Assembly (NCBI GenBank): GCA_045651165.1
Contig: JAZRRX010000039.1
Coordinates: 111,448-175,447, forward strand
DNA: 64,000 bases
Reading direction: 5' to 3'
DNA from: Eubacteriales bacterium
GTDB lineage: Bacteria; Bacillota; Clostridia; Oscillospirales; CAG-272
Shown: positions 21,465-58,999 of the stretch, in pieces
Position numbering within the stretch: the stretch's first letter is position 1
Layout: each line of letters begins with the position of its first letter
The notes under the pieces: model-generated
Database searches by the model: none
The model's input: only the letters and a program-made list of their open reading frames with translations
What the model was told of the DNA's origin: nothing
Program-made: the position numbers and the translations under genes

Positions 21465-21479
21465 ATACAAGTCGAAAAT

Positions 21480-21555
21480 CTAGGTGTAGCTCAGCTGGGA
21501 GAGCGCTACCTTGGGGTGGTAGAGGCCGCAGGTTCAAGTCCTGTCACTTAGACCA
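21480..21555 (+). tRNA. tRNA-Pro (anticodon GGG)
   Basis: Hand-folded cloverleaf. Acceptor CTAGGTG/CACTTAG, D-arm GCTC-AGCTGGGA-GAGC, anticodon stem CTACC/GGTAG with loop TTGGGGT, T-arm GCAGG-TTCAAGT-CCTGT, encoded CCA. Confidence 0.85.
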
Positions 21556-21558
21556 GAA

Positions 21559-21597
21559 AAAACCTTGAAAACATTGAGTTTTCAAGGTTTTTTCTTT
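21559..21597 (+). terminator. Terminator after tRNA-Pro
   Basis: 14-bp stem AAAACCTTGAAAAC/GTTTTCAAGGTTTT, then T-rich sequence. Confidence 0.8.
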
Positions 21598-21601
21598 TGC
21601 C

Positions 21602-21645
21602 TGTTACGCAGTTTTTAAGCGGGGTGTTACACAATTTGTTACGCA
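21602..21645 (+). repeat. Triple TGTTACRCA module A (candidate integrase arm-type sites)
   Basis: TGTTACGCA 21602-21610, TGTTACACA 21625-21633, TGTTACGCA 21637-21645. The same three-site layout recurs at 46893-46935 and 58786-58828. Confidence 0.6.
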
Positions 21646-21691
21646 GATTTGTATAATGCCCTAGCTTTTTTATTGTGTCTTTGTACATACT

Positions 21692-23206
21692 TTATATTGC
21701 CCTATTCAAATTAAAAGTCTGTACTAGTCTTTTTTTGATTTCTTTTTCTTTTTCAACAAATCCTTCAAAATTGGAAACAATTTTTTCAAGTTGATTTATT
21801 ACTTCGTCTGTTTCATATCGGGTATCTTCATCGCAACTATCGTCAATATTTCCTTCTTCGTTGTATGAAACAAATCCGTATTCAATCTGGATAAAACCTT
21901 GCGCAGGCTCATCACTTCCATACAGCTTCAAACACAATGTATCTTCGCCGCCATCGTCACACGAAAGGTAAAGTTCATCCATCTTTATTCCAATAAGTTT
22001 TTTGTTTTCATTATAAAAATAAAACGCATCACCATAATCAAAACTATCTGACAACTCTCCAATACATTCAGAGTAGTCCAACTTTGTGGCTTGTTCATTT
22101 ATATATTCAACGACAGCGAGTAGGTCATTTACTGTGCCTTCAATATCATTGTCATCCACAAATGCTTTCCATTTTTCAATAAAAAGTGGCATATTTTCAA
22201 TTGGAATAGACAATACATGATTGATAAGGTCATCGCAATAAAACAAATTTAGTTCTTCTAAATCATTGTAACATTTTCGTATTCTTTCTGAAAATGAAAC
22301 AATTTCATCGGCAAATTCTGATTCTCTAAATTCTTCAATAAACTTTTCCTCATAGGTACCCAACGAACTTAATCCAACAGATTCACGAGCAATGTCCTTC
22401 ACCTCAGAACAAAAGTCCAAATACTCCTGTTCTTTCTGCTCACGCATTTCTTGTTCGAACTCTTCTTTAAGAGATGCATTATTTATTTCCACGGAAAGAT
22501 CGTTGCCGATTAATTTTTCAAAATGTCTAGTAAATACTATTTGTTCAGACAACCCCTTTTCCGCGATATCTTTCAGTATATCTTCGTGTAGTTTCTCGCT
22601 TTTAACATTTTCACAAAAATCACTTGCATTACCTGTAACTAAATATATTCTGTCTTCAGGGTATAATTCAACGATATCTTTTATATTCAATAATGTTTCA
22701 ATAATCAATGCGTCGGCAAAGCAATCTTTGGATTCGTGATGAAATGGCGCAATTTTATAAATTCTGCGTCTTAGACAAGCTGAACGTAATTTGTCAGTAT
22801 CCTGAACGACCAAACTATTTCGATGTTCGAATAAGTTCTTAATTATAGATGATAACTCTACCGAATACTGAGATAATTTTGACTCATAAATAGTACTTAA
22901 CTCGTGTAAAGTTCCTCTTGCCTTTTCCTTGTATTCTTTTACTTCCAAACCATCAATAGTACAACCATTAATTCCGTATATTTCGCCGATTGCTTTCTTG
23001 GCCTCTTTTATAGTTTTCCCTACCTTGGACAATTCATCACCAATGTGCTTGTACGTTTCATGGACAACAATAGATGGAAGCAAGAGCTTGATTTCATCAT
23101 AATCCAATAACTTAATAAAAGATTTAAGCAATGAAGATGAAAAATTGTTTTTTCGATCAATAATCATATCCAAAAAAATATTTGTGTCTATGAGTAAATA
23201 TTTCAT
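21692..23206 (-). CDS. PIN-like domain protein with ~300-aa uncharacterised C-terminal region
   Basis: N-terminal MKYLLIDTNIFLDMI, plus later acidic positions (VVHETYK, DCFADALIIE, TGNASDF) in PIN-like spacing. GGAGGAAAGAA RBS 17 nt after the upstream gene. Confidence 0.6.
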   Translation of the reverse strand: MKYLLIDTNIFLDMIIDRKNNFSSSLLKSFIKLLDYDEIKLLLPSIVVHETYKHIGDELSKVGKTIKEAKKAIGEIYGINGCTIDGLEVKEYKEKARGTLHELSTIYESKLSQYSVELSSIIKNLFEHRNSLVVQDTDKLRSACLRRRIYKIAPFHHESKDCFADALIIETLLNIKDIVELYPEDRIYLVTGNASDFCENVKSEKLHEDILKDIAEKGLSEQIVFTRHFEKLIGNDLSVEINNASLKEEFEQEMREQKEQEYLDFCSEVKDIARESVGLSSLGTYEEKFIEEFRESEFADEIVSFSERIRKCYNDLEELNLFYCDDLINHVLSIPIENMPLFIEKWKAFVDDNDIEGTVNDLLAVVEYINEQATKLDYSECIGELSDSFDYGDAFYFYNENKKLIGIKMDELYLSCDDGGEDTLCLKLYGSDEPAQGFIQIEYGFVSYNEEGNIDDSCDEDTRYETDEVINQLEKIVSNFEGFVEKEKEIKKRLVQTFNLNRAI

Positions 23207-23223
23207 TTCTTTCCTCCAAAAAA

Positions 23224-24345
23224 TTACTCTTCAGTAGGTAATGGGTTTAAACCAATAATAAAATCAGTCAGCAGAATAGCATTAAGTGATGCCTTCTTAT
23301 TAGGATAACGCTTATATTTGCTATGTGAAATGCCATTCCTATTTGGAACTCCTTCGATAACTTCTTCAGGAGTATCGCATTGACTCATAATAAAGTTGTC
23401 GTAATACTCACCGAAAATGGGTTCAAAGTCATTTTCGGTTAATAACTTTCCAAAGTCTTCTTTGGTCTTTTTAGATCCCTGCCTACCGACTACGTTTGTT
23501 TTTTTGTGGATCAAACCTTCCCACATTGTAGCTAAGCACGTAATCGTTAATGCATATTCTCCGCGCAGGTGCGCTTCAATAGCTTGTCCTAATATCTTTT
23601 TTGTGTGTGGCTCTAAATCAGAATTTCTCCACCCGCGCTTTATGATCTTTATTTCTTTGGCTGTGTAATAAGATAAAATCACTTTATCAATACGCTTTTC
23701 TCGCCTCTGACTCGCTCCTCTGCTTGACACTATGATTTCATTGACCTCGGCAAAAAGCTCTATGTTAACAGTCCATCCTGCATAGGGAAACCATTTTGAT
23801 TCGTACATAACTTGAAGATATCGTTCGTTCAATTCACGATAACGTTGCAAAACATCGCTATCAAAATTGAGGTTTTCAAGTATTGTTTTTAATGGCGTAA
23901 AATCGAAACTGCTGATCCATTGTACAAAAGGAGAATTTACATAAGTCTGCAGAGCAACAGTACAACTCTCGATCACAGCATGCATTGAGTTATATAACGA
24001 GGCCGATGCTTCACCTATACTTTGAACGGCTGAATATATAGCTGGATTGATTTGAAAATTAGCAGACCATACTGCAAATTTGGTTAATGCGGATACTGTT
24101 TCTGAAAGCATCGACTCTCTATAACTATTTAACACATTATTATTTGCTACTTGAGTTAAGGCTGTAACTATAGATGGCTGAACTGAAACAGTAGGCATTA
24201 CCATCGTAGTTGATTCAACAATAGCTCTGAACTTTTCTTGCCTTTCTAATGCTGGCGTTATATTTTTTTGCAGTTGTTCCATACCCTCATCATTTTTACT
24301 AACAACCTTTTCAATAGCATCGTAGTTTTCCTTGTCTGTAATCAT
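23224..24345 (-). CDS. Uncharacterised protein with C-terminal HEPN-like (Rx4H) region
   Basis: C-terminal helical region ILGQAIEAHLRGEYALTITCLATMWEGLI ... VPNRNGISHSKYK (R-x4-H). Start set to the ATG at 24345 behind GGAGG; the ORF track starts at 24366. Confidence 0.5.
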   Translation of the reverse strand: MITDKENYDAIEKVVSKNDEGMEQLQKNITPALERQEKFRAIVESTTMVMPTVSVQPSIVTALTQVANNNVLNSYRESMLSETVSALTKFAVWSANFQINPAIYSAVQSIGEASASLYNSMHAVIESCTVALQTYVNSPFVQWISSFDFTPLKTILENLNFDSDVLQRYRELNERYLQVMYESKWFPYAGWTVNIELFAEVNEIIVSSRGASQRREKRIDKVILSYYTAKEIKIIKRGWRNSDLEPHTKKILGQAIEAHLRGEYALTITCLATMWEGLIHKKTNVVGRQGSKKTKEDFGKLLTENDFEPIFGEYYDNFIMSQCDTPEEVIEGVPNRNGISHSKYKRYPNKKASLNAILLTDFIIGLNPLPTEE

Positions 24346-24577
24346 AATGGCCTCCGTTCCTTCCAAATTACCCTTCTATAATCATATTAGTTCATATGTC
24401 AAACGCCATTTATTGAAGTTACATAATTATATCACATATCATCTGTTTTTTCAATACAAATAATCAAATGCAAATATATATTTAATTTGCAACATTTCTG
24501 CTAACAATTCCCTTTTGGCGTTCGCGGGTGGGAGAATTCGCGATATAATTAGCTTAACGTTTTATGGGAGGTTAATT

Positions 24578-24850
24578 ATGAAGTCGATACTTGAGGAGTT
24601 GTTTTACGGAAATATATGTCCTAACACGGACTGCAGGGGCAATGATGAGCAAACGAAGGAGCTTATGGTTTACATAGCCGATCATCGCAATACGCTCAAG
24701 GGTGAACTCACGGAAAAGCAAAAGGAAATTTTAGAAAAGTTTGATGATTGTTGGAACGAGCTTACTGATATTAACGAGCGCGAGATATTCATTTATGCCT
24801 TTAAGCTTGGTGCTCGGATTGCCATTGAAGTCCTCTCAAGCAAGGAGTGA
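24578..24850 (+). CDS. Small acidic helical protein directly upstream of the integrase
   Basis: ATG at 24578 behind GGGAGG; ends 10 nt before int. The position would suit a directionality factor, but no HTH was recognised. Confidence 0.5.
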   Translation: MKSILEELFYGNICPNTDCRGNDEQTKELMVYIADHRNTLKGELTEKQKEILEKFDDCWNELTDINEREIFIYAFKLGARIAIEVLSSKE

Positions 24851-24859: not shown

Positions 24860-26035
24860 ATGACAGGTTGTGTTGCGGAGCGTAATGGTGTATATTACGT
24901 TCGGTTAAGTTATTACGATAGAAATCACAAAAGGCGGGACAAATTCATAAGCACTGGGCTTTCGGGTCGTGGTGCTAAAAAGAAGGCAACTGCTATGATC
25001 GAGCAATTGATTGAAAAATACAAGTATCTTGAGAAAAGTGATCATCCATCCAAGATGGCTGACTATCTAATAATGTGGAAAAATCTTCGCAAAAGCGAGG
25101 TTGCTGAAACCACTTATGACGGATATCACACCTATATTGATAGGCACCTTGTTCCCTATTTTAGAGATCTCAATTTGAATATTCAAGATATCACTGCAGG
25201 TCATATTTTTGATTATGTCAATTATCTTTCTAATGACGGTGGCAGAAAGGATAACAAGATTGGCGGGCAATCTAACACCTCAATTAGAAAGATTATCAGT
25301 ATTCTTAGACAGGTATTTGAATATGCCGTTCTATATGGAGATATCAAAATCAACCCTGCCCTTCAAGTGCCCTTGCCCAAGAAAACCAACAAAAAAGATG
25401 AGCGTCAAGTTTTCTTGACATCCGAAGATGCTCAAAAGATGCTTGACGCTTTTCAAAACGAGGAGATTGGGCCTATTGTTTATGTAACGCTTTATTATGG
25501 ATTAAGAAAGTCCGAAGCGCTTGGTCTTCGTTGGCAAGCCGTTGATTTTGATGCTAACACTATCACGATAAATCACACTGTGGTTGGCAACGGTCATATT
25601 GTAAGAAAAGATACCACCAAGACATACACAAGCCGACGAACTTATGAGTTGCTCCCCGATGTTAAGGCGTTACTTTTAAAACTAAAAGACCAACAAGATG
25701 ACTACAAGCGCAGGCTTGGTTCAGGCTATCATATGAACGATTATATATTCAAGAATCCTAATGGCGTACCCTACCGTCCCGATAGCCTCACACGGAGTTT
25801 TAAGCGCGCCCTGGCTCGTCACGGACTTCCTCAAATGCGCTATCACGACTTGCGACATTCGACCGCCTCTATCCTTGTCGATAAAGGTTGGGACATCAAT
25901 GATATAAAGGAGTGGCTCGGTCACGCTGACATCTCAACCACGGCGAATATTTATGCGCATATTAGCCATAGAAAGAAAGTCTCGCTCGCTAAAAGCCTGA
26001 ATGGGTCGCTGAGTTTTGAGCAAAAATCTGAATAA
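24860..26035 (+). CDS. int: Tyrosine-type site-specific integrase
   Basis: ALGLRWQAVDF (Arg I), YHDLRHSTASILV (H-x-x-R), LGHADISTTANIYAH (catalytic Tyr region); 391 aa. Confidence 0.9.
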   Translation: MTGCVAERNGVYYVRLSYYDRNHKRRDKFISTGLSGRGAKKKATAMIEQLIEKYKYLEKSDHPSKMADYLIMWKNLRKSEVAETTYDGYHTYIDRHLVPYFRDLNLNIQDITAGHIFDYVNYLSNDGGRKDNKIGGQSNTSIRKIISILRQVFEYAVLYGDIKINPALQVPLPKKTNKKDERQVFLTSEDAQKMLDAFQNEEIGPIVYVTLYYGLRKSEALGLRWQAVDFDANTITINHTVVGNGHIVRKDTTKTYTSRRTYELLPDVKALLLKLKDQQDDYKRRLGSGYHMNDYIFKNPNGVPYRPDSLTRSFKRALARHGLPQMRYHDLRHSTASILVDKGWDINDIKEWLGHADISTTANIYAHISHRKKVSLAKSLNGSLSFEQKSE

Positions 26036-28071: not shown

Positions 28072-28458
28072 TTATTCAAATGGCATTTCTTCATCGTCAT
28101 CATTGGCATTTGAGTGCAACTCAAAATCATTATACAGTTTATTAACTGCACTCATGTCGATTTTAAAGTATCTCTTTTTAGGCATACCATGATGCTTTAT
28201 TTTAATTATACCATATGACTCAAGCTCTTTACATGCCACTAATTGCTGATGCTTGCTAAGCCCTGTGTTATTATACATATTTTCAATAGTGCTATAGAAC
28301 CAACCTCCTGACTGCAACCCACCGCGCTCATTCCAATATGTATATTCAGAATAAATTTCAGATAACATAATTGCAGTGTTAAGATTGAATCGCCTGATAA
28401 ATGGTCGTGGCAGTCTTATAAAGTCATATTGGAACATTTTTTCTAAATTGTTTTTCAA
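28072..28458 (-). CDS. RepA_N-like winged-helix DNA-binding protein (replication-initiator N-terminal domain only)
   Basis: FIRLPRPFIRRF ... GGWFYSTIENMYNNTGLSKHQQLVACKELESYGIIKIKHHGMPKKRYFKI follows the RepA_N / replisome-organiser pattern; only 128 aa. Confidence 0.5.
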   Translation of the reverse strand: MKNNLEKMFQYDFIRLPRPFIRRFNLNTAIMLSEIYSEYTYWNERGGLQSGGWFYSTIENMYNNTGLSKHQQLVACKELESYGIIKIKHHGMPKKRYFKIDMSAVNKLYNDFELHSNANDDDEEMPFE

Positions 28459-48141: not shown

Positions 48142-48249
48142 AATATCACCTCCAACATCTATCGGTAATATTATACCACATTATAGGCAAAATATCAATA
48201 TATTTTGTAAAAATATACGCGAGTTATTTTGCCGATAATTAACAGTAAT

Positions 48250-48277
48250 AAGGCAAGACCGAAATCGGTCTTGCCTT
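48250..48277 (-). terminator. Hairpin downstream of the protease gene (weak terminator)
   Basis: Stem AAGGCAAGACC/GGTCTTGCCTT; only a weak U-tract on the minus strand. Confidence 0.4.
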
Positions 48278-48350
48278 CATTTGGTGTTTAAATTTCACCC
48301 ATATAGTAATTAATAATTTCAAATGCAATTGATATGTATAATAATACATT

Positions 48351-49193: not shown

Positions 49194-49314
49194 AAAAATT
49201 ATCCTCCTATATTATTTGATGATAATAGATGTTCTGAAATATTGTGGTTTTCACCGTAAAACCGAGTTGGGTCTTGCCTTAGTATTAGTTTTAATTAGAA
49301 AATCTCTTGTTAGG

Positions 49315-49631
49315 GCAACTCGGGGCGTATTTTTAGTACAGCGCCCGGAGTTGCTATATGTGCGTTCAGCGATATGTTTTTAGTACGGTATCGGAAACGG
49401 TTCATTATGTATCAAGCTCAGCGAAGTGTTTTTAGTACAGCTTCGGGAGCATGTGGCGCTCAGCGGTGGGTTTTTATTACGTCACCGGGAGCGCGTGTAA
49501 GATTTTCCATTTTAGGATTTGAGCAAGCACGCGGCAGCTCGATTATTTAGTTCGCTCAACGAAGTGTTTTTATTACAACTTCGGGAGCGTGTGGCGCTTA
49601 ACGATGGATTTTTAGTATGTCATCGAGAGCC
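49315..49631. repeat. Tandem array of six to seven ~42-nt stem-loops with conserved loop TTTTTA(G/T)TA(C/T) and covarying stems
   Basis: Units at 49315-49354, 49363-49399, 49416-49450, 49456-49494, 49553-49589 and 49593-49631, plus a degenerate unit near 49521-49552. Inner stems are CGATA/TATCG, CGAAG/CTTCG, CGGTG/CACCG, CGAAGT/ACTTCG, CGATG/CATCG. Conserved TGTG linker. Strand of any transcript is unknown. Confidence 0.85.
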
Positions 49632-49654
49632 ATTGTATAGCTTTATATTTTTTG

Positions 49655-50077
49655 TTAAGTTTTATTTTCAATGGTATCAGTAATTACATCAACTGTACCA
49701 TCAGTGCCTGTTACCTCAAGCGTAAACGTTGCACGATATGTACCGGAACCGTTAAGGGACATTTCATGATAAAATATACCATCAAGATCAGTAGAAGTTG
49801 AGGTCCACGTGCCAACATCATTCCAAAAAGCAAAAAGAAATCTTTTTTCAACTTTAACCGTTAATTTTGCACTAACAAAGCTTGGGGAATACCCTGTATA
49901 ATTTGCATAGATATATCCAACAGAACTTGTAGCATCAAAAGAAAAGGATGCGCCGCCAATATGTGACAAACGCGGCATCACCTGGTTTTCCGATTCTGCC
50001 GCGCAAACAGGAATGCTCGTCAAACACATAAGTATTGACATCAGAATTAAAATGATTGATTTGATTGTTTTTTTCAT
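49655..50077 (-). CDS. Small secreted protein
   Basis: Signal peptide MKKTIKSIILILMSILMCLTSIPVCAAE. Start set to the ATG at 50077 behind GAGGTG. Confidence 0.6.
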   Translation of the reverse strand: MKKTIKSIILILMSILMCLTSIPVCAAESENQVMPRLSHIGGASFSFDATSSVGYIYANYTGYSPSFVSAKLTVKVEKRFLFAFWNDVGTWTSTSTDLDGIFYHEMSLNGSGTYRATFTLEVTGTDGTVDVITDTIENKT

Positions 50078-50169
50078 AACTTTCACCTCTAAAATATAAA
50101 AATTTGAGTATTTTTTATATACTCTACATTATACTACCCATTTTTTTGACAAAATTCTTCAAATTTTCA

Positions 50170-50210
50170 CAAAAAAAATAAAAACACCTCAAATTGTATA
50201 ATTTGTGGTG
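50170..50210 (-). terminator. Terminator after the anti-sigma-like gene
   Basis: Stem CACCTCAAATT/AATTTGTGGTG (one mismatch), with a long T-run on the minus strand. Confidence 0.7.
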
Positions 50211-50220
50211 TTTTGTATGT

Positions 50221-50883
50221 TTATTTCGTATTAATTCCATTAATGATTAACGTCAAAGTTTGCTCTGGTAGTTCATTGGACACATATAGTTGCATAGCAT
50301 ATTTACCGTCATTCCATATGTAGCAATAACCGGTGTTTATTTGACGATAATATATTCCATATTCGCCTATATTAATAATTTCATAATCACCGTGCTCAAT
50401 ATCAACTGAAAAACTGGAACTATCAAGTGGTTGTTGTATAAATTTAATTGATTCACCCTCTTCATTTGTGAATTTGTATTGAATTCCCATACGAGTAATA
50501 CTTTCTTCTGTCAAAACATATCCCTCTGGCACATATGTAAGCTCATAAATTTCTTCTATATTTTGGCTTTCATTCTCACCTTCAGAAAAACTAACCTTAA
50601 CGAAACGTTCTCTAATATCTGTAATAAATTCACGAATTTCATTACGATAGATAATAGCACAACCTGCAAGGAGAAGAATTGCAGCAGCAACGAGAATTGC
50701 TATCATTTTCCTATTAAGTGGCTTCTTAATCTGTTTTCCATTCACTATACGCGCCATATTTTTAATATGCCTGCGCGAATAAGTAATTTCTTCATCACAA
50801 GCATCTATCTCACGGTCAAGACGCCTATTTACGCCTTCAACCAATGCCTGTTTGAAAAGCTCCTGATTTGTTTTGTTATCCAT
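50221..50883 (-). CDS. Anti-sigma-like single-pass membrane protein (DUF4367-like)
   Basis: Central TM (MIAILVAAAILLLAGCAII) and C-terminal YELTYVPEGYVLTEE pattern; starts 1 nt after the sigma gene. Confidence 0.6.
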   Translation of the reverse strand: MDNKTNQELFKQALVEGVNRRLDREIDACDEEITYSRRHIKNMARIVNGKQIKKPLNRKMIAILVAAAILLLAGCAIIYRNEIREFITDIRERFVKVSFSEGENESQNIEEIYELTYVPEGYVLTEESITRMGIQYKFTNEEGESIKFIQQPLDSSSFSVDIEHGDYEIINIGEYGIYYRQINTGYCYIWNDGKYAMQLYVSNELPEQTLTLIINGINTK

Positions 50884-50884
50884 A

Positions 50885-51433
50885 TCATTCTCCTTTCAAA
50901 GCATCTCTCAACATCTTTTTGCCTCTTGAAAGTCGAGTATAAACTGTCTTTTCGGGTATTTCCATCATTTCTGCTATTTCAGTGGGTGAAAGTCCCCTTT
51001 CATATTTAAGAAGCAAGGTAGTGCTATACACGGGGTCAAGGTTTTCAATCGCCTTAACAACGTCTTCATACATTAACTTGATGTCGATATCCTCTATAAT
51101 ATTATACCCGTCATCGACGAAAATTTCTTCACGAAATTCTAAATCTTTAACATTTTCTTCAGAAATTCTTATAACTTCATGCAAAACAACCGAAAAAACA
51201 TAACATCTAAGTTTGTTATCGTGCATTGGAAACCTAAGATTATGTATATATTTTGTTATTCTTAAATATGCTCTTTGAACAGCATCCTCTGCATCAAGGA
51301 CAGGATTGTGACTATCCATGCTTCTAAATTTGCTAATCGCAAATCTCATCATATCGTCGTGAAAACGATTATATATGTATTCAATCCGACTGTGATATTT
51401 TTCGTCGCATAGTGTTAATAGAAATTGTAACAT
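50885..51433 (-). CDS. Sigma-70 family (ECF-like) RNA polymerase sigma factor
   Basis: Region 2-like DAEDAVQRAYLRI and region 4 LSPTEIAEMMEIPEKTVYTRLSRGKKML. Confidence 0.8.
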   Translation of the reverse strand: MLQFLLTLCDEKYHSRIEYIYNRFHDDMMRFAISKFRSMDSHNPVLDAEDAVQRAYLRITKYIHNLRFPMHDNKLRCYVFSVVLHEVIRISEENVKDLEFREEIFVDDGYNIIEDIDIKLMYEDVVKAIENLDPVYSTTLLLKYERGLSPTEIAEMMEIPEKTVYTRLSRGKKMLRDALKGE

Positions 51434-51639
51434 TGGTATTCCCTTTCAAATTGATTATTTGACAAAATTATACCATAAATGACATATATATTCAATATTT
51501 TCTACATAAAAACCGCAAAATAAGTAATTATTTGAAGAATTTTATTTAATAAATAGGTAATATATATGTGTTTTTTCGGACATAAGTACTATTTGTATTT
51601 TTCTCACTCTCCAATTTTTTGAAGAAAGGAGGTGATGAA

Positions 51640-51873
51640 ATGAATTACAAATACGTACTTACAGAAACCACTTATTACAACGGCGAGTATACCCGCACAA
51701 GCTACGGAATAGCTGTTATTAGCACACTTGATAATATTAGTGTTCTTTGCGAAATAACAGATATCACCGACGAGCGCGATAAATCCCAAAAACTTGTGGA
51801 ACTTTGCAACAAAAAACAATTAGACATCGACCATCTGCAAAATGTGGTCGATGACTTTTTGTGTATGAAATAA
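51640..51873 (+). CDS. Small hypothetical protein
   Basis: ATG at 51640 behind AAGGAGGTG; 77 aa; no recognisable domain. Confidence 0.45.
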   Translation: MNYKYVLTETTYYNGEYTRTSYGIAVISTLDNISVLCEITDITDERDKSQKLVELCNKKQLDIDHLQNVVDDFLCMK

Positions 51874-51900
51874 CAACAAATTAATTTTCATACAAACAAA

Positions 51901-51948
51901 AGAGTGAATAAGTCTGATAAAAACGGACTTGTTCACTCTAAATTTTTG
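51901..51948 (+). terminator. Rho-independent terminator
   Basis: 16-bp stem AGAGTGAATAAGTCTG/CGGACTTGTTCACTCT (two mismatches), then AAATTTTT. Confidence 0.65.
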
Positions 51949-52249
51949 GAACTCATAGTCTATGATAGTAGGGTGAGCTCTTTTCTTTAATATAATATAA
52001 AATTTTAAGATTATTTTGTATTCAATATTGACTCTTAAAAAGCCAAATGTTATAATATATACAGAGATGAAATATACGGTAGTTCCTCTGATTTTGTATC
52101 AACTATTTGTATCAACTTGTGATAAAAGTTGAACACGAATGTGACAAAAGTGGAGCGATATCCCATTATTTACAGAAATATATTAACAAATACGGTGATA
52201 TATTAACAAATATATGGGGAAATTACTCGGAAAGTGGTAAAAATATGCC

Positions 52250-52295
52250 CCTTGGGGTGGTAGAGGCCGCAGGTTCAAGTCCTGTCACTTAGACC
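52250..52295 (+). repeat. tRNA-Pro anticodon-loop plus 3'-half copy (att-like)
   Basis: 46/46 identical to 21509-21554; no 5' half upstream. Confidence 0.9.
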
Positions 52296-52357
52296 CAAAA
52301 TGGAGTGGTGTCCGATGTTACGGCCCCCTCCATTTTTCTTTATTTATCAATACTTTA

Positions 52358-52394
52358 AGGGCATTTTGGAGCTTTCTCCAAAATGCCCTCTTTT
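52358..52394. terminator. Hairpin terminator downstream of the PMI-like gene
   Basis: 14-bp stem AGGGCATTTTGGAG/CTCCAAAATGCCCT, loop CTTT, T-rich tail. Confidence 0.65.
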
Positions 52395-52408
52395 CTATTA
52401 TCCAATTG

Positions 52409-52960
52409 TTATTTACAGCTTTTTAGACCACAGTACTTAAGCATACCGTCTAAATCGCTGGATGTTGAGTACGCGATTATTTCACCAAGATCATTTTCAA
52501 TCTTATTATCCTTTAGATAATATTTGCGAATTGTGGTAATTATTGATGTAAAGCTACCCGATGCAACAAAATCACCAAAGGTTGCAGGAACAAAAACAGA
52601 CTCTCCCTTTTTTATGGGCATATTTCCAATCGTTCCCTCACCATCAAGACAAGTGAAGCAACAGAATGAATTAGTATCATTGGAAAATTCCTTTTTGCCG
52701 TTTATATCCTGAGCATCAATAAATTTAACAAGCACAGGAAAGAAATCAAATGCTTTGCAGTTTTCTCCAAGATTTTCTTCGGTCACAACATCGCAAAGCG
52801 TTCTACCGTCTTCAAGCATAGTTTTACCATCTTTGTGAAAGGAAAGCTCCCAAGTTTCTGCAAGTGGAGAGATCTCTGTATCCTTGCTATATTCACTTTT
52901 CAATTTATTTCCGCCCCAAATTATGCTCTTGTAGGCGGGCACAAGCTTAACTATATTCAT
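52409..52960 (-). CDS. Class I mannose-6-phosphate isomerase-like protein apparently lacking the catalytic core
   Basis: N-terminal LVPAYKSIIWGGNKL ... FPVLVKFIDAQD and C-terminal cupin-like KKGESVFVPATFGDF are present, but the central QVHP/zinc-ligand region is not seen. Start set to the ATG at 52960. Confidence 0.5.
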   Translation of the reverse strand: MNIVKLVPAYKSIIWGGNKLKSEYSKDTEISPLAETWELSFHKDGKTMLEDGRTLCDVVTEENLGENCKAFDFFPVLVKFIDAQDINGKKEFSNDTNSFCCFTCLDGEGTIGNMPIKKGESVFVPATFGDFVASGSFTSIITTIRKYYLKDNKIENDLGEIIAYSTSSDLDGMLKYCGLKSCK

Positions 52961-52973
52961 AATAATCCTTTTA

Positions 52974-53816
52974 TTAGTATTTGATTGATCTTGTAAAGGT
53001 GATTTGCTCGCCCTTTTCAAGAGTTACTACGCCATCTCTTTCTTTGAATTCTTTGATTTCATCAACGTATGAGGGTAAGCACTGCCAAGGCTCAATGCAA
53101 AGCATTTTTGAGCCGTGGGGATGCCACAAAAGAAGATTTGAGAAGCCGTCGTAGGTGATTTCAACCACCTTTTCATCGGTTTTCTTATCTTTAAGTATTG
53201 CTTTTCTTGAATTGATGTTGCCAAGAATAACAGTTGCGCTATTATCAGTAAAATCATTTTCGAGAGGCAAAATTTTACCCGCTCCGTGATTTACTTTCTC
53301 ACCTGTGAGCATACCACCTGAATTATGAATAAGAAAGTCAAAATGTTCTTCCTTTTCAAATTCAACGTAGTAGTTTTCTACTTCATTATCGAGCGTGAAG
53401 GACTCGTGTCCTCCACAAACAAAAGGAATTTCCTTTGAGTCCTTATTTTCTACAGTATAAGAAACCTCATATCCATAGTCCACAACCTCATATTTCACTC
53501 TGAACGCGAATTCATATGGGTATACGGCTCTTGTTCTATCATTTGCACAAAGCTCAAATTCAATGCTGTTTTCAGCCTGTGAAACAAGATTGAATTCTTC
53601 ACTTCTACAAAATCCGTGCTTTTGAACACCGAAATCAACTCCGTCATAAATAAGACGGTTAAAACCAGCGAATGGGAAAAGGAGTATTGCGCATCCCGAC
53701 CACTCACCTGTTTCGTTCTGCCAAGCGCGTTCTTTGCCATCATATATTACGCTTCTAACTTCAGCGCCAATTTCACTAATTTGAATCTTTATTTTTTTAT
53801 TGCTAATTGTATACAT
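52974..53816 (-). CDS. Aldose 1-epimerase family protein (LacX-like)
   Basis: GAEVRSVIYDGKERAW, LLFPFAG and QKHGFCR patterns. Start set to the ATG at 53816, 1 nt after the galE stop. Confidence 0.7.
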   Translation of the reverse strand: MYTISNKKIKIQISEIGAEVRSVIYDGKERAWQNETGEWSGCAILLFPFAGFNRLIYDGVDFGVQKHGFCRSEEFNLVSQAENSIEFELCANDRTRAVYPYEFAFRVKYEVVDYGYEVSYTVENKDSKEIPFVCGGHESFTLDNEVENYYVEFEKEEHFDFLIHNSGGMLTGEKVNHGAGKILPLENDFTDNSATVILGNINSRKAILKDKKTDEKVVEITYDGFSNLLLWHPHGSKMLCIEPWQCLPSYVDEIKEFKERDGVVTLEKGEQITFTRSIKY

Positions 53817-53817
53817 T

Positions 53818-54828
53818 TTAGTTATATCCATTTGGGTTTTTAGTTTGCCAATTCCAAGATGAAGCACACATTTCATCAATTCCATGCTCTGCTGTCCATC
53901 CAAGTTCTTCTTTAGCTTTTGTAGCATCCGCATAACAAGATGCTATATCACCCGGGCGACGAGGAGCAAATCTATATGGAACATCATGTCCACATGCCTT
54001 GCCAAATGCTTTAACAAGGTCAAGAACAGAATATCCCACACCCGTGCCAAGATTGTAAATATGACATCCTAAATTCTCTATTTTTTCAATTGCAACAACA
54101 TGACCTTTTGCCAAATCTACAACGTGAATATAGTCTCGTACTCCCGTTCCGTCATGCGTATCATAGTCATTTCCAAATACATTAAGATATGGAAGCTGAC
54201 CTATTGCAACCTTTGCAACATATGGTGTAAGGTTGTTTGGAATACCTGATGGTGCTTCTCCAATAAGTCCACTTTCGTGTGCACCAACAGGATTAAAATA
54301 TCTAAGGAGCACTACTGTCCACTCTTTGTCGGCTTTGCAAAGGTCTGAGAGAATTATCTCTTGAAAATACTTTGACGTACCGTAAGGATTTGTAGTTCCA
54401 CCCACTTTACATTTTTCGGTCAATGGAAGTGTCTCGGGATCACCATATACAGTTGCAGATGAAGAGAAAACAATCTTTTTACAGTTGTATTTTTCCATTA
54501 CCTCTACAAGAGAAAGAGTACTTTCAAGATTATTTTGATAATATTTTATGGGCATTGAACAACTTTCGCCTACTGCCTTTAAGCCAGCAAAATGAATCAC
54601 GTATGAAATTGTATTTTCAGTAAATATTCTTTCAAGTAATTCTTTGTCACGCACATCCCCTTCATATAGTGTAACGCTTTTTCCAGTTATTTGACTCACT
54701 CTGTTCAGAGATTCTTTCGATGAATTAACAAAGTTATCAATAACAATAACATTATATCCTTTATTAAGCAATTCAACACACGTGTGACTACCAATATAGC
54801 CCGCGCCACCTGTAACTAAAATATTCAT
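53818..54828 (-). CDS. galE: UDP-glucose 4-epimerase
   Basis: [13 protein letters not shown] and YGTSKYF (YxxxK). Start set to the ATG at 54828 behind AAAGGAG. Confidence 0.9.
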
Positions 54829-54874
54829 AATGATCTCCTTTATCAATAACTCATTGTAAAATATTTAAATTGTA

Positions 54875-56251
54875 TCATCCGATTTTAGGCAAGCTTGCGG
54901 CCGCTACTGACTGTCCTACTCTTCTTGCCTTTTCGTCTGGAATATTGAGGGTTATCTTTTCGTTGAGCTCGGGGAATTCAGTTGCTATTACCTCTCTTGC
55001 TTTATTAAGAAGGATTTCGCCACCGTCACCGCTTGTTACTCGTCCCATAATGAGAACGTGCTTTATATCGTAAAATTCAGCGTAGTAAGCAAGTGAATAG
55101 CCAAAATATGCACCGATTGTTTCATAGATTGCCTTGGCTCTTTCGTCGCCCTCTTTCATAAGGTTTTGTACTACCTTAAGCTTTTCTGCGGGAGAAAGAT
55201 TTTCGTCAAGGTCGATATTTGCATAGGGTGCGAGTTTGATAACTCCGTCCTGTGAGAAATACTTAACTCCACAGCCGTAATCACCCGACCACTCGTCAAC
55301 CATTGCGTCCTCGTTGTAGTCAACGGGAGCGAATGCAAGTTCGTTAAGCCACCCTGTGATGTTTCCGTCCATATCAACGTAACCTGCCGCCTCACTTGTG
55401 CCCATAGCGATACCGAGAATTCCGTTATCCTCAAGGCTCATAGCACCTGCAAGTGCAGTTACGTCACCGTCATTTGCAACTTCGATCGGGATATTTTCAC
55501 CGATCTCGCGCGCAACGTCGATATACATATTCTTTACTTTCTTTTCAAAATCGTCATCATTTACCTTAATAAAGAGTGATGCGACCATTATCTTATTATC
55601 AATGTAAACACCTGCGCTCGATACACCGATAGCATCAACTCTCGGCATGTGCGATGCGGCAGTTTTCATAGCACTCAGTATTCCCTCATAGTGATAATTG
55701 GGATCGCTATTGAGTTTAGGAAACCAAACTACTTCCTCGGAATATACGGTTTCACCGTTAACTACTGCAGACACCTTTCTGTCCGATCCGCCTGCATCAA
55801 AACCGATACGACATCCATCAAGGTGCTTACCTACGGGAGAAGCAGAGCTTTTTTCCACGGGCGCGTGTTCAAGATCGGTTACAACAACCTCAAACGGTCT
55901 TTCATATACTCTCTCCATAAACCTAACATCGAAATCTCTTGTTCCACCATAGCAGAAAGTATTTTTGATATATTCGCCAACGACTTCGCTTCCTGCAACT
56001 GTGATCTTATAACCACCTGCTACCCACAAAAGAGTTTTTGCAATTCTATCGATAAATTTGCAGTTTTCTTCGTCGTGACCTGTTCCGTCTTTATATATTC
56101 TTGTTTTATAAACGTATGTATAGCCTTGATTTCTTTCAACCGCAACAACGATGTCCTGTCCGTTGTCCTTTGTATTCTCTCTCATTTCTTTGCAAACGAG
56201 AGCCATTGGCATAAAGCCACCATCAAGCTTTGTATATTCTGTAGAAAGCAT
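54875..56251 (-). CDS. ASKHA-fold (ROK/BadF-like) sugar-kinase-like protein
   Basis: IGFDAGGSDRKV (phosphate-1-like) and GIAMGTSEAAGY; 458 aa; lies between nahK and galE. Confidence 0.5.
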   Translation of the reverse strand: MLSTEYTKLDGGFMPMALVCKEMRENTKDNGQDIVVAVERNQGYTYVYKTRIYKDGTGHDEENCKFIDRIAKTLLWVAGGYKITVAGSEVVGEYIKNTFCYGGTRDFDVRFMERVYERPFEVVVTDLEHAPVEKSSASPVGKHLDGCRIGFDAGGSDRKVSAVVNGETVYSEEVVWFPKLNSDPNYHYEGILSAMKTAASHMPRVDAIGVSSAGVYIDNKIMVASLFIKVNDDDFEKKVKNMYIDVAREIGENIPIEVANDGDVTALAGAMSLEDNGILGIAMGTSEAAGYVDMDGNITGWLNELAFAPVDYNEDAMVDEWSGDYGCGVKYFSQDGVIKLAPYANIDLDENLSPAEKLKVVQNLMKEGDERAKAIYETIGAYFGYSLAYYAEFYDIKHVLIMGRVTSGDGGEILLNKAREVIATEFPELNEKITLNIPDEKARRVGQSVAAASLPKIG

Positions 56252-56275
56252 AATAATTGTCTGCTCCTTTAGTCT

Positions 56276-57331
56276 TTATAAATATTTTTTTACGATTTCT
56301 ATCATTACGTCTTCATTTTTTTCCATTTCGGAGAGAAGCTTCATTTGTGTTCTACATCTATCCAAATTATGGTGTTCTCTATGAATTCTAAAGTATGTGT
56401 CACCGGAAAGATAATCGGTTAAAAAACGCATACCGCATTCGTAAGTCATAAGCATTGCACCAAAATGCATATTGGTTCTTTCGCCTTCTGTAAGCATATG
56501 CTTAACAAGTGGTAAAAAGCCTTTGCAATAACTTTCATAATACTCTTTAGAAAAATTAATCTTAGACAAATCAATCTCATCCTCGGCTCCGGTATTTGCA
56601 CCATAACGAATACTATCTCCGAAATCATAAAGAATACTACCCGACATAATGGTATCAAGATCAAGCACACCAACAACTCTATCGTTTGCCTCATCCACAA
56701 GAACATTATTGGGTTTGGTATCATTATGAGTCACGCGAAGCGGTATTTCACCACTCGCAATAAGGTCAAGAATTCTTGAACAATACTCTTTTCTTGATTT
56801 AAAAAATTCTACCTCTTCATTACAGCTGTTAACTCTTCCCATCAAATCAGCATCAACCGCAGCCTCAAATTTTTCAAATCTATCGACCGTATTGTGAAAA
56901 TTTTTGATGGGATCAAACAATTTGTCCGCTGGGTATCCATTAAGAAGATTTTGGAATTGACCAAAACCTCTTCCGGCAAGCTCAAACTGCTTGAGAGTGG
57001 CACCGGTTTCTACAGTTTCTCCTGAAAGGAAAGTATAAACTCTATAATAACCTTCCCCATCAAAATAATATGGCTTATTATCAAGTGTTGGAACTACCAA
57101 AAGTAATTCCTCTCCGTGATTGGGAGAATTTGCAATATATTCGGTTACTCCACAAATATTTGACATCAGCTCATCCACATTAGGAAAAGTTTTATTATTA
57201 ATTTTTTGTAATATATACTTGGTTCCATCTTCACATACTATAAGATATGTTGTATTAATATGCCCTGCGCCATAAATTTCAGCAGAAACAACTGTGGAAC
57301 ACAGATTAAAATTATTAGCTACGTTTTTCAT
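56276..57331 (-). CDS. nahK: N-acetylhexosamine 1-kinase-like phosphotransferase
   Basis: APH-type HNDTKPNNVLVD and LDLDTIMSGSILYDFGD; about 350 aa, like NahK/LnpB. Confidence 0.7.
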   Translation of the reverse strand: MKNVANNFNLCSTVVSAEIYGAGHINTTYLIVCEDGTKYILQKINNKTFPNVDELMSNICGVTEYIANSPNHGEELLLVVPTLDNKPYYFDGEGYYRVYTFLSGETVETGATLKQFELAGRGFGQFQNLLNGYPADKLFDPIKNFHNTVDRFEKFEAAVDADLMGRVNSCNEEVEFFKSRKEYCSRILDLIASGEIPLRVTHNDTKPNNVLVDEANDRVVGVLDLDTIMSGSILYDFGDSIRYGANTGAEDEIDLSKINFSKEYYESYCKGFLPLVKHMLTEGERTNMHFGAMLMTYECGMRFLTDYLSGDTYFRIHREHHNLDRCRTQMKLLSEMEKNEDVMIEIVKKYL

Positions 57332-57367
57332 CAATTATACCTTTCAAATACTATCTTAAGTTCAATT

Positions 57368-58504
57368 TTAAGATTCATATCTGAGGACACCTCCGATAAT
57401 TGTTTTCTTTACGTTAAATTCTTCATCAAGAACAACTATATCAGCATCCTTGCCCATCTCGATTGATCCCTTTTTGTCGGCAACGCCGATAGCATTTGCG
57501 GGATTGAGAGTTGCACAGTTTACGCATTCATAAAGCGGAATTGAGGAATTATTATACACATTCCAAACGCCCTTATTGAGCTTCAATACGCTTCCTGCGA
57601 TAGTTCCATCTTCAAGCTTACAAAGATTGTTCTTATAGATAATCTTTGCGCCTCCGAGTGTATATTCTCCCTCGGGGAGTCCTCCTGCAGGCAAACAGTC
57701 GGTGATAAAGCAGAGCTTTCTTCCCTTCATCTTGTAAACCATTTCATAGAGTGCAGGGTCAACGTGATATGTATCAACGATAAGCTCGCAAGAAACGTCG
57801 GAATTGAGTGCCGCACCAACAACACCCGGTGCACGATGAGTCATAGGAGTCATCGCATTAAAGAGATGTGTTGCGTGCTTAACACCGTTCTTTGTGCTTT
57901 CCATTGCGGTCTTATAGTCCGCAGAGGTGTGTCCCATAGACACTACAACGTTTGTTTCTTCTGCCATTCTCTTTATCTCAAGGAAATCCTTGTCCTCTTC
58001 GGGAGCGAGTGTTATTATCTTAATAATATCTGCATTTGCCTTGACAAAATCAGCATCAGGTTTGAGTATAAATCTCTCGTCCTGCGCACCCTTTTTAGAT
58101 GCGGAGATAAAAGGACCTTCCGCATGCACTCCAAGGATTTGAGAGCCATAATATTCACCGCTATTCTTAACAGAACGGCAAGCGTTAAGTACGCCATTTA
58201 TAACGGACATACTAACTGTCATTGTTGTAGGCAAAAAGCCGGTTACACCATTTTCAACGATTCCGCCAGCGATTGTTCTGATACTATCGGCGGTTGCATC
58301 GCAGACATCCTTCCCAAAATATCCGTGAATGTGCAAATCGATAAATCCGGGAGTTACATAACCGCCATCGCAATCAATAATCTCTGCGCTCTCGGGAATT
58401 TCATTTTCTTCTACTATTCCCTCTATTTTGTCGGAGATAAGTAATACCTTTTTCTCTACTATTTCATTTTCAAGTATGAGCTTTGCGTTTTTTATTGCAA
58501 GCAT
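57368..58504 (-). CDS. nagA: N-acetylglucosamine-6-phosphate deacetylase
   Basis: FIDLHIHGYFG and HLFNAM. Start set to the ATG at 58504 behind GAGGTG. Confidence 0.9.
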   Translation of the reverse strand: MLAIKNAKLILENEIVEKKVLLISDKIEGIVEENEIPESAEIIDCDGGYVTPGFIDLHIHGYFGKDVCDATADSIRTIAGGIVENGVTGFLPTTMTVSMSVINGVLNACRSVKNSGEYYGSQILGVHAEGPFISASKKGAQDERFILKPDADFVKANADIIKIITLAPEEDKDFLEIKRMAEETNVVVSMGHTSADYKTAMESTKNGVKHATHLFNAMTPMTHRAPGVVGAALNSDVSCELIVDTYHVDPALYEMVYKMKGRKLCFITDCLPAGGLPEGEYTLGGAKIIYKNNLCKLEDGTIAGSVLKLNKGVWNVYNNSSIPLYECVNCATLNPANAIGVADKKGSIEMGKDADIVVLDEEFNVKKTIIGGVLRYES

Positions 58505-58527
58505 AAGCACCTCAAAATTATTTTTTA

Positions 58528-58647
58528 TTAAATATTTAAGCTTTCAATATATGCGGCCAATGATTTAGCCAACTCTTCGTGCGCTTCCTTTGTTGGATGT
58601 CCATTCACGCCAGATGCATTAGGAACAAATTCAAAAGGATTGAATAT
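58528..58647 (-). pseudogene. C-terminal remnant of an SGNH/GDSL-type hydrolase
   Basis: A 39-codon open frame reads IFNPFEFVPNASGVNGHPTKEAHEELAKSLAAYIESLNI, resembling SGNH block V (GxHP). No upstream coding continuation. Confidence 0.3.
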
Positions 58648-58785
58648 TTACAACAGGCTCTTGGAACAATCCGTCCTCCTTATTATATCACAAAAACAAA
58701 TAAAGTACAATATTAAAATGATAATTAATTATATTTTTGCACTTTATTTTGCACTTTATTTTTATAATCTAAAATAATATTCCCC

Positions 58786-58828
58786 TGTTACACAATTTGA
58801 CTCCTTGTGCTACGCAGTTTGTTACGCA
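58786..58828 (+). repeat. Triple TGTTACRCA module C
   Basis: TGTTACACA 58786-58794, the variant TGTGCTACGCA 58806-58816, and TGTTACGCA 58820-58828. Same spacing pattern as modules A and B. Confidence 0.55.
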
Positions 58829-58954
58829 ATTATGTTTTTAAATCACTTTAGTGTTCAAAAATTCCGTTAATTCCGCACAAAATATAGGTCAAACAATGAA
58901 ACTTAAGGTCGTTATTCACTATGTGTAATGACCGAAAGTTTAAAAATTGACCAG

Positions 58955-58999
58955 TTGGGGTGGTAGAGGCCGCAGGTTCAAGTCTTGTCACTCAGACCA
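58955..58999 (+). repeat. tRNA-Pro 3'-half copy (probable ancestral 3' end, att-like)
   Basis: 43/45 identical to 21511-21555 (mismatches at 58985 and 58993), including CCA; followed directly by a strong terminator. Confidence 0.85.

Follow-up and report, generated by a model that had tools for sequence, protein, structure and literature searches.

A tRNA-Pro(GGG) Gene Followed by Three of Its Own Fragments: Probable Repeated Integration at the Anticodon Loop in a Ruminant-Gut Clostridia Genome

Introduction

How does one functional tRNA gene come to be followed, over the next 37 kb, by three partial copies of itself, one of which is a 5′ half? We asked this of a 64-kb stretch of DNA, here called the window, from Eubacteriales bacterium GCA_045651165.1 (JAZRRX010000039.1), which belongs to a ruminant-gut lineage of Clostridia. 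The gene is tRNA-Pro(GGG), and its fragments delimit three units that we call E1, E2 and E3, followed by a fourth segment at the right-hand end. Our analysis indicates that the region from 21556 to about 60290 very probably arose as one element after another integrated site-specifically into the anticodon loop of this gene, and the older occupants then decayed. Direct support comes from the tRNA-derived repeats, from short sequence arrays with a fixed geometry, from the association of one integrase family with the same tRNA across hosts, and from the decay of the older islands. From these observations we infer a crossover inside the loop, a function for the arrays and an order of events.

Gene content was assigned with Pfam and PHROGs for window open reading frames (ORFs) of at least 70 aa, defence genes with PADLOC, tyrosine integrases with tblastn, and tRNAs with ARAGORN and Rfam (at the gathering threshold and also at E ≤ 1). 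Chance matches were estimated from dinucleotide-preserving shuffles of the window. Comparison loci from relatives carry labels of the form L130; almost all are metagenome contigs of other species. An earlier note on this stretch had described an integrase-bearing defence island, a Fic and protease segment, a sugar-salvage segment and a recombinase remnant, and the contents of the four segments as mapped with Pfam, PHROGs and PADLOC agree with that description.

Results

One tRNA Gene and Three Fragments

The only tRNA that ARAGORN calls in the window is tRNA-Pro(GGG) (21480-21555, +), which is also the sole Rfam match at the gathering threshold and is 100% identical to the tRNA of L021, L062 and L130/131. 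A promoter-like site of the native gene lies at 21436-21464 (+; TTGACT and TAATAT spaced by 17 nt, with a TG), in a region that is kept upstream of the tRNA in L021, L062 and L130. Three fragments follow, and all four copies are co-oriented on the + strand. The first, at 47030-47069, consists of the 5′ half and the anticodon loop (40/40 identical to 21478-21517; tRNA positions −2 to 38, including two upstream nt); a pattern search with the 5′ part alone finds 47032-47069, which the repeat finder lengthens to 47030-47069. The other two are 3′ fragments, one displaced to 52250-52295 (46/46 identical to 21509-21554; tRNA positions 30-75) and one right-most at 58955-58999 (43/45 identical to 21511-21555; tRNA positions 32-76; C62T and T70C). 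Start-to-start distances from the gene are 25,552, 30,741 and 37,444 bp. The shuffled windows give an expectation of 0 matches for either tRNA half, and the repeat finder detects nothing duplicated in the region except tRNA pieces and arm motifs. One intact gene and three fragments with these identities, at distances of about 25.6, 30.7 and 37.4 kb, had been reported in the earlier note, which left the calls to a tRNA finder; ARAGORN, Rfam and the pattern and repeat searches bear out every one of these statements.

The anticodon loop TTGGGGT (21511-21517, +; tRNA positions 32-38) is the only stretch common to all four copies. We place the crossover in the loop, where it had been suspected before, because no other stretch is shared by all of the identity blocks; TTGGGGT would then be the 7-bp crossover (overlap) region. 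We give almost no credence to the idea that the pieces are members of a dispersed repeat family unrelated to tRNA-Pro. Our searches turned up nothing in its favour, and it is opposed by the copies themselves, which number only four, share one orientation, match the tRNA at 96-100% identity and lie at island junctions. Related loci likewise show such pieces only beside tRNA-Pro or island arms.

The 5′ fragment does not continue into a proper 3′ half. After the 47 kb loop, the right-hand arm of the anticodon stem reads AACTA instead of GGTAG, and 47070-47103 (+), the left end of E2, is a degenerate stretch that resembles the tRNA 3′ half in a local alignment with a 7-nt gap (p ~4e-4). The resulting hybrid, 47030-47103, gives no tRNA call by ARAGORN, nor by Rfam even at E ≤ 1.

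Terminators and Arrays around the Crossover Site

A terminator hairpin begins with the last nucleotide of the tRNA gene (21555-21597, +), at the start of what would be the P′ arm of an element. Its part 21555-21595 has a folding energy of −22.8 kcal/mol (z −6.9), and a T run comes after it. The hairpin is kept after the tRNA in L081, L130/131, L138-140 and L142. The hairpin behind the right-most fragment, at 58999-59037, is similarly stable (−21.9 kcal/mol, z −6.5, then a T run). Both of these long hairpins were missed by a simple terminator scanner and found by folding.

In lambda-type systems, the attachment site of the element (attP) consists of a core flanked by arm-type integrase sites. 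The window contains motifs that could serve this purpose. TGTTACRCA occurs 9 times against 0.99 expected, and 8 of the 9 copies fall into three clusters, one after the tRNA and the others before the 47 kb and 58.9 kb fragments. Each array is a triplet in one orientation, with start-to-start spacings of 22-23 and then 12 nt. The array after the tRNA, on the presumptive P′ arm, has three TGTTACRCA sites (21602-21645, +; starts 21602, 21625 and 21637) at +84/+107/+119 from the loop end. The array on the P arm of E1 has three TGTTACGCA sites (46893-46935, +; starts 46893, 46915 and 46927) at −170/−148/−136 from its loop. That on the P arm of E3 (58786-58828, +; sites at 58786 and 58820 plus TGCTACGCA at 58808) lies at −169/−147/−135; L129 has a homologous arm. 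No array triplet precedes the 52.2 kb fragment.

The geometry of the P′ array is equal within 2 nt in 10 related loci. Its offsets are +84/+107/+119 in the window, L081 and L138-140, +84/+106/+118 in L130/131, and +83/+105/+117 in L142/144/145. No arrays follow the tRNA in L021 or L062, both of which are without this integrase. The arrays thus appear to have the layout expected of the arm-type sites of an attP that was split by integration, with P′ at the left junction (attL) and P at two right junctions (attR). We regard the TGYTACRCA triple arrays as candidate arm-type binding sites on both attP arms of E1. As in lambda-type attP, short repeated sites stand at a fixed distance on both arms, ~85-170 bp from the crossover, and are conserved together with the integrase family. 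They differ from lambda-type sites in that there are three per arm in one orientation with 22-23 + 12 nt spacing, and they are putative binding sites for the integrase, DUF6809 or another protein.

An Integrase Family at tRNA-Pro(GGG)

The sole tyrosine integrase of the window, a 391-aa protein encoded at 24860-26035 (+), lies in E1 (PF00589, 3.4e-25, with SAM-like domains; phrog_1 integrase). Its catalytic motifs R, HxLRH, LGH and IYAH are visible in an alignment to 3nkh. Xer and integron types were excluded by the N-terminal SAM-like domains and the island context rather than by a dedicated model. Searches by tblastn with three different tyrosine integrases found only this gene and no remnants of others in the window, as the earlier reading had supposed. 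Immediately upstream of it in every related locus that reaches that far is a DUF6809 gene (24515-24850, + in the window), which is by its position alone a candidate directionality factor.

Homologues of the integrase number 2917 at E < 1e-30 and come mostly from ruminant and gut metagenomes; genomic contexts were recovered for relatives of 87-98% identity. In these contexts the family (relatives of 85-99% aa identity) lies 2-3.5 kb downstream of tRNA-Pro(GGG) in hosts with different flanks and different tRNA 5′ halves, falling into three host flanks: the window with L130/131, L081, and L142/144/145. The L130/131 loci, from a related species, share the melibiase-MFS left flank and an identical tRNA, and their terminator and array match the window at 92% nt identity over 268 bp. 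After the array they carry different cargo and then DUF6809-integrase-DUF1810 and the same small serine recombinase. L081 and L142/144/145 have other flanks and a tRNA-Pro(GGG) with a different 5′ half (G3 not A3, plus other changes); the terminator and triple array come after it at the same distances, and a DUF6809-integrase pair is found about 2-3 kb beyond them. Across hosts, then, the terminator and array are conserved and the cargo between tRNA and DUF6809 differs. Therefore, the integrase family is specific for tRNA-Pro(GGG), and the terminator at 21555-21597 and the array belong to the island. The proposal that the functional gene ends in a terminator brought in by an element is upheld by the same pattern, in which terminator and array stay constant as host 5′ halves and flanks change.

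The 3′ halves at the attL sites fit the acceptor stems of their hosts, with T70 opposite A3, C70 opposite G3, and a compensated T51/A63 pair in L142. Such matching is what one would expect if the 3′ half brought by the island were selected for its ability to restore a working tRNA.

Other elements are found at the same gene. In L021 the tRNA is in the syntenic position and is directly followed by an unrelated integrase (27% identity); this locus also has a second integrase and a STAND-type NTPase with a kinase domain. Among the contexts of a helix-turn-helix (HTH)-methylase cassette, 6 of 10 end in a tRNA-Pro 3′ fragment without TGYTACRCA arrays. Several island families therefore use tRNA-Pro(GGG). 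The earlier description of the gene as an integration hotspot is well founded, given integrase relatives beside it in three host flanks and an unrelated integrase in L021.

A History of Repeated Integration

These observations suggest the following mechanism. A tyrosine integrase would recombine the chromosomal 7-bp loop TTGGGGT with the same heptamer in attP. Each event would join the chromosomal 5′ half to the 3′ half, terminator and P′ arm of the incoming island, and would push the sequence to the right of the loop to the far end of the island, behind its P arm. Every fragment would then read, from left to right, as the P arm of the newer island, the loop, and the 3′ half and P′ arm of the older one. 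What stands at 47070 would be either what was present when the right junction of E1 formed or a later insertion. The present gene, 21480-21555, would be the attL of E1, made of the chromosomal 5′ half, the loop and a 3′ half supplied by E1.

A different account would do without site-specific integration. Segmental duplication, RecA-dependent recombination or gene conversion might have scattered the tRNA pieces through genes that are ordinary variable chromosome, in keeping with the missing integrases of E2 and E3, with a base composition of the region that is the same as that of the flanks, and with L070, a distant relative in which two of the E3 genes have homologues within a few kb of the MFS gene. 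We consider this highly improbable: every breakpoint falls at the same 7-nt loop, three of the four sites share one fixed arm-array geometry with 10 foreign loci, the same integrase family stands beside the tRNA in unrelated flanks, and only tRNA pieces and arm motifs are duplicated.

If islands accrete in this way, junctions of the same form should exist elsewhere, and two sets of independent assemblies contain them. The tandem junction of L138-140 runs from a restriction-modification (RM) cassette with HTH through P arm, loop plus 3′ half, terminator, array and cargo to DUF6809-integrase. In L129, two successive scars precede an island with an integrase, and the stretch contains no intact tRNA. 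These junctions bear on the very unlikely case of an assembly artefact, in which islands of different strains at the same tRNA were joined in series in a metagenome-assembled genome. The closest records are all metagenome-assembled genomes, the L006 contig ends inside the tRNA, and the exact integrase sequence is on record on one NCBI contig only, all of which would suit such an error. The exact repeats, however, are only 40-46 bp, and the final k-mers of metagenome assemblers are usually longer than this. Moreover, tandem junctions are present in L129, L138-140 and L151, which are independent assemblies, and each junction of the window has a distinct, internally consistent arm pair.

We also noted a recurring scar in L129 (6717-6809) and L062 (3633-3720, minus strand). 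In it, the loop plus GGT leads into ~43 nt that include a conserved hairpin (CCCCAAAGC...GCTTTGGGG); then come a second degenerate loop and the 3′ half of a tRNA-Pro. This scar looks like two attachment sites whose intervening island was almost wholly deleted.

The Intact Island E1

E1 (21556-47069, 25.5 kb) is an intact member of the DUF6809-integrase island family, as judged from the presence of both arrays, the integrase module and perfect repeats. Its right junction, the putative attR at 47030-47069, poses the question of how a 5′ half reached the downstream side of the gene. This 5′ half falls inside the P arm footprint, where the array-to-loop distance is the same as in the E3 arm; there, unrelated sequence fills the space. 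In L129, an arm spacer homologous to 46936-47010 leads directly into tRNA positions 13-76. An E1-type attP thus appears to carry a nearly complete tRNA-like copy that reaches into the 5′ half, and the 5′ half at 47030 would lie downstream of the gene for this reason. The earlier note had the tRNA-adjacent island bring a tRNA copy including the 5′ half, and the homologous arm of L129 agrees with it.

The E1-borne 5′ half is unlikely to be an independent tRNA gene, since we found no convincing promoter upstream of it, its spacer is unlike the native promoter, and the L129 copy is without positions 1-12. We tried aligning the E1 P arm spacer as a diverged copy of the native tRNA promoter region, which was rejected (p = 0.24). 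Outside the arrays, the 47 kb and 58.9 kb spacers have no detectable relation to each other.

Between the P′ arm and DUF6809, E1 has a variable cargo slot (21692-24366, minus strand) that encodes a PIN_12 protein of 504 aa and a 380-aa protein without known function (Pfam). PADLOC did not recognise this pair. In L081, L129, L130, L138 and L142 the slot holds other genes; contents of related islands include a SecB-like gene plus two others, a CHAT, DUF2188 and HTH protein set, an SDH-type protease, and a Peptidase_U49 with an HTH domain. The slot has the look of a place where gene pairs, possibly defensive ones, are frequently exchanged.

The body of E1 (26089-46718) combines a backbone common to L130 and L142/143 with defence cargo (Pfam, PHROGs, PADLOC). 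The backbone comprises DUF1810, a replication-initiator-like fragment (28072-28458), a small serine recombinase (34127-34825), peptide deformylase and TipAS; a BspA-type leucine-rich repeat protein is encoded in the body as well. The defence cargo consists of HEPN, an NsnA-like GmrSD_N protein, four Dcm cytosine methylases, and an LlaJI-type endonuclease with its AAA_5 subunit, and the block includes an HTH controller (46503-46718). The deformylase gene (35061-35486) adjoins the TipAS-domain gene, so that these islands carry a copy of their own. L142 has a further deformylase gene at the end of its host flank, and thus two copies near the tRNA (7108-7524 and 15714-16139). Conjugation, relaxase and phage structural genes were not detected in the window by the Pfam and PHROGs scans. 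Scans of IMG/VR, one with the arm array and one with the element terminator, returned chance matches only or none; islands of the E1 family are absent from this viral collection.

The Integrase-less Units and the Right-Hand Boundary

E2 and E3 are bounded by fragments and have no integrase or integrase remnant. E3 (52296-58954) is probably a decayed member of the E1 family that lost its integrase end, because it keeps a P arm array and part of a P′ flank. The truncated P′ flank contains two hairpins (52296-52396, +) and aligns to L129; the homology stops at 52396, where sugar genes start in the window, and L129 runs on into the P′ array and DUF6809-integrase. The cargo of E3 (52409-58510, minus strand) comprises MPI-cupin, aldose epimerase, GalE-like, 458-aa ROK-like, APH-family kinase and NagA-like amidohydrolase genes (Pfam). 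Homologues of the NagA-like and 458-aa ROK-like genes are found at 9831-12360 of L070, 3-5 kb downstream of the MFS gene (protein 67% identical); they are oppositely oriented, and no tRNA piece accompanies them. Depending on the lineage, the E3 sugar genes may therefore belong to the chromosome or travel as island cargo.

E2 (47070-52249) begins with the degenerate 3′ half and encodes Fic, a trypsin-like protease, DUF4367 with an extracytoplasmic function (ECF) sigma factor, and DUF6514, together with a hairpin array. It has a single array-like site, at 47172-47190. A TTGTATCAAC pair at 52094-52116 was considered as an E2 arm site and rejected, as there is one tandem pair only and no enrichment. 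The context of the Fic homologue in L019, which is partly masked, is unrelated. The hairpin array (49330-49650, minus strand) is flanked by a 143-aa ORF and by the start of the protease gene and has about six hairpins with the conserved loop GTA(C/A)TAAAAA. Its stems vary yet stay complementary (CGAAGT/ACTTCG, GGTG/CACC, CGATA/TATCG, GGGCG/CGCCC), and it matches no Rfam family even at E ≤ 1.

Beyond the right-most fragment, the earlier note had placed the native flank from 59000 onward and had taken the fragment and its terminator for the ancestral tRNA 3′ end. The first claim fails, since synteny resumes only at ~60290-60666: relatives resume at the PHP gene (60666), and the closest relative does so at 60290. 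As to the second, the hairpin is real and forms part of a two-hairpin terminator module (59000-59101, +) that is conserved in L151 (82% nt) and L044 (88% nt). The fragment itself is another matter. Its T62 and C70 are variants of tRNA-Pro in the G3-type hosts L081 and L150-155, and C70 would mispair with the A3 of this host. The combination of tRNA 3′ fragment, terminator module and large serine recombinase is met again as one block in L151 (897-2748); in L044 (558-672), the module stands beside a TnpV-like ORF with no tRNA piece. On account of the C70 mismatch, the foreign-host variants, the recurrence with a serine recombinase elsewhere and the late return of synteny, we think it improbable that the right-most fragment represents the 3′ end of the ancestral tRNA.

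The module is followed by a large serine recombinase remnant (59105-60238, minus strand), the C-terminal 377 aa with Recombinase, zinc ribbon and DUF4368 domains and no catalytic N-terminal domain. It has 63% aa identity to L151 over all 377 residues, and no N-terminal remnant was found in the window. The small recombinase of E1 and this remnant are not the halves of one split gene, as 34127-34825 encodes a complete 232-aa invertase-type enzyme that is conserved in related islands. The remnant abuts a truncated AraC-family gene, whose 3′ part marks the return of the native right flank (60290-60669, +; ORF 60340-60591; 95% nt identity to 11021-11389 of L149). L149 (GCA_045643885.1) has a full-length AraC-family gene with a GH95 enzyme gene next after it; in more distant relatives, the PHP gene has GalT behind it instead. 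The variable region thus appears to extend to ~60.3 kb, and 58955-60290 is best read as an older scar, composed of a foreign-type 3′ half, the terminator module and a truncated large serine recombinase against a truncated AraC-family gene.

On the left, the flank consists of a GH36 alpha-galactosidase (melibiase) gene and an MFS_2 sugar transporter gene (Pfam). Between the MFS gene and the tRNA promoter lies a non-coding or short-ORF segment (20931-21200) that is kept at 79-88% nt identity in L006, L021, L062, L064 and L130. In L062 the matching segment is inverted along with the tRNA. The segment has no Rfam match at the gathering threshold.

Flanks, Empty Sites and Points against the Proposed History

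A scan of relatives' contigs with the left-flank MFS protein found 80 relatives at 61-95% aa identity. The majority are without a tRNA adjoining the MFS gene, and the right flank of the window was not within 10 kb in any of the 80. Right-flank contexts without a tRNA were seen in P0126 and P0130 (PHP then GalT) and in P0243 (PHP then an AraC-family gene). Exact-protein look-ups of the left-flank MFS, the right-flank PHP and the integrase returned no match. No empty site was found among the relatives that have a complete tRNA with downstream sequence (L021, L062, L130/131), all of which are occupied or scarred, and none of the relatives examined has the left flank next to the right one.

Several points weigh against the history set out above. 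We saw neither an empty site nor an excised circle nor a repaired junction; present-day mobility is therefore conjectural. The flanks of the comparison loci are only ~77-82% identical to those of the window at the nt level, and what happened in the window's own lineage is thus read from more distant ones. In L129 the P′ array stands ~47 nt further from the loop than in the other loci. The stretch at 47070-47103 is closer to the loop-proximal E3 P arm (58927-58954; 23/28 identical, p ~2e-4) than to the tRNA, a likeness that falls outside the simple integration rule. Our explanation of the downstream 5′ half draws on two examples of an E1-type arm, and Islander rejects this configuration. Finally, E2 and E3 would once have been independent islands, although neither has an integrase and E2 is without clear arm sites.

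Order of Arrival and Predicted Excision

Two orders of arrival are equally consistent with the sequence. Either E3 came first, then E2, whose poor 3′ half would break the gene, and then E1, which would repair it; or E3 was followed by E1 and then E2. In the second case the attR of E1 and 52259-52295 would have formed a spare, promoter-less full-length copy into which E2 inserted. Both 47030-47069 and 52259-52295 are 100% identical to the gene.

The first of these orders is the one that the earlier note proposed, with a poor copy first and a rescue later; it is one of two that the sequence fits equally well. We think it somewhat less probable than an even chance. It agrees with the usual arrangement in which the newest island lies beside the regenerated gene, and E1 is the sole intact island and has perfect (40/40) repeats. 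That some phages integrate without rebuilding the tRNA (PMC10865867) also counts for it. On the other side, it needs E1 to have integrated at a site with AACTA, not GGTAG, as the right-hand anticodon-stem arm, and it needs a period without a functional tRNA-Pro(GGG); an order with E2 last needs neither assumption. Were E2 to have preceded E1, excision of E1 would break the tRNA again.

By recombination between its own repeats, E1 could excise alone as a 25,552-bp circle, taking the good 3′ half with it and leaving the hybrid at 47070 and beyond. Recombination of attL with the 58.9 kb site, which has the array of the family, could release a composite of 37,444 bp, after which the remaining tRNA would have A3 mismatched with C70. 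The 30,741-bp product would be least likely for the resident integrase, because the 52.2 kb site is without an array.

Discussion

Published work on islands in tRNA genes (tDNAs) and on the accretion of decayed elements describes a matching mechanism (PMC4383910, PMC5704250, 10.1101/2020.11.02.365908). The closest likeness is to the tDNA islands of Islander with an anticodon-loop ('A') crossover (Hudson, Lau and Williams 2015, PMC4383910), with which the window shares a tyrosine integrase, an intact tDNA at one end, a co-oriented 3′ fragment at the other and restoration of the gene; the sublocation classes are those of Williams 2002, as cited in PMC4383910. By the Islander scheme, the window has an intact tDNA and a co-oriented fragment on the same replicon, a PF00589 integrase in the interval, and a link between integrase and tDNA in independent genomes. 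The configuration with a 3′ fragment downstream applies to 52250-52295 and 58955-58999 and does not apply to 47030-47069. Islander filters out a 5′ fragment downstream of the tDNA as non-canonical, and it lists 125 tandems of at least two and 4 of at least three among 3919 islands (PMC4383910). The window differs from these in the 5′ half downstream of the gene, and two of its three downstream units have no integrase and are not array members under the Islander rule. Because each member of a tandem array should have its own fragment and integrase, E2 and E3 fall outside this class; they fit decayed units resembling cis-mobilizable elements (CIMEs). E3 has the features of such a unit, being bounded by attachment-type repeats (52250-52295 and 58955-58999) and having an E1-like P arm geometry.

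Accretion of this kind is known from ICESt1/ICESt3 of Streptococcus thermophilus and from tandems of integrative and mobilizable elements (IMEs) and integrative and conjugative elements (ICEs) at tRNA-Lys in S. agalactiae (PMC5704250), where the same sequence of integration, decay that keeps attachment sites, and re-integration is found. As with ICESt1/ICESt3, the result here is a composite with several possible excision products, which in the present case are predicted from sequence. Unlike ICE/CIME accretions, the window has no conjugation or mobilization genes that we found, and its host is an uncultured member of the ruminant-gut Clostridia.

Mycobacteriophages with tRNA-dependent lysogeny (Guerrero-Bustamante and Hatfull 2024, PMC10865867) offer a second parallel, with a tyrosine integrase, integration that does not rebuild the tRNA, as at the left end of E2, and tRNA sequence of the same isotype supplied by the element. 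They compensate with a separate, complete phage tRNA gene, whereas attL here would be rebuilt by the 3′ half of E1. pSAM2, likened by its description, has the same target isotype and sublocation and is a conjugative integrative plasmid of an unrelated host phylum.

The locus is a clear but ordinary case of a well-described class, that of tDNA islands with tandem accretion and CIME-like remnants, and it leaves the understanding of tRNA-targeted integration unchanged. New here are the DUF6809-integrase family with its triple TGYTACRCA arrays, the host range of this family in ruminant-gut Clostridia, and the explanation of the downstream 5′ half.

A bolder pair of proposals, which we hold to be unlikely, is that elements of the E2 type break tRNA-Pro(GGG) and islands of the E1 type repair it, and that the tRNA fragment, terminator module and large serine recombinase mark a family of serine-recombinase elements located exactly at the CCA end of tRNA-Pro. 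According to the Islander paper, only tyrosine recombinases are known to target tDNAs (PMC4383910). If the first proposal were true, the host would depend on E1, and excision that re-creates the broken gene would amount to tRNA-based retention of a defence island.

Conclusions

The route proposed here for a 5′ tRNA half to the downstream side of its gene provides a worked example of a configuration that island-finding pipelines discard. For an abundant family of integrase islands that had not been described before, the analysis supplies exact boundaries together with a crossover site and candidate arm sites. These can be used to delimit islands in fragmented metagenome assemblies, in which contigs often break at tRNA-Pro(GGG). 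The islands of this family carry restriction-modification and other defence genes in uncultured Clostridia.

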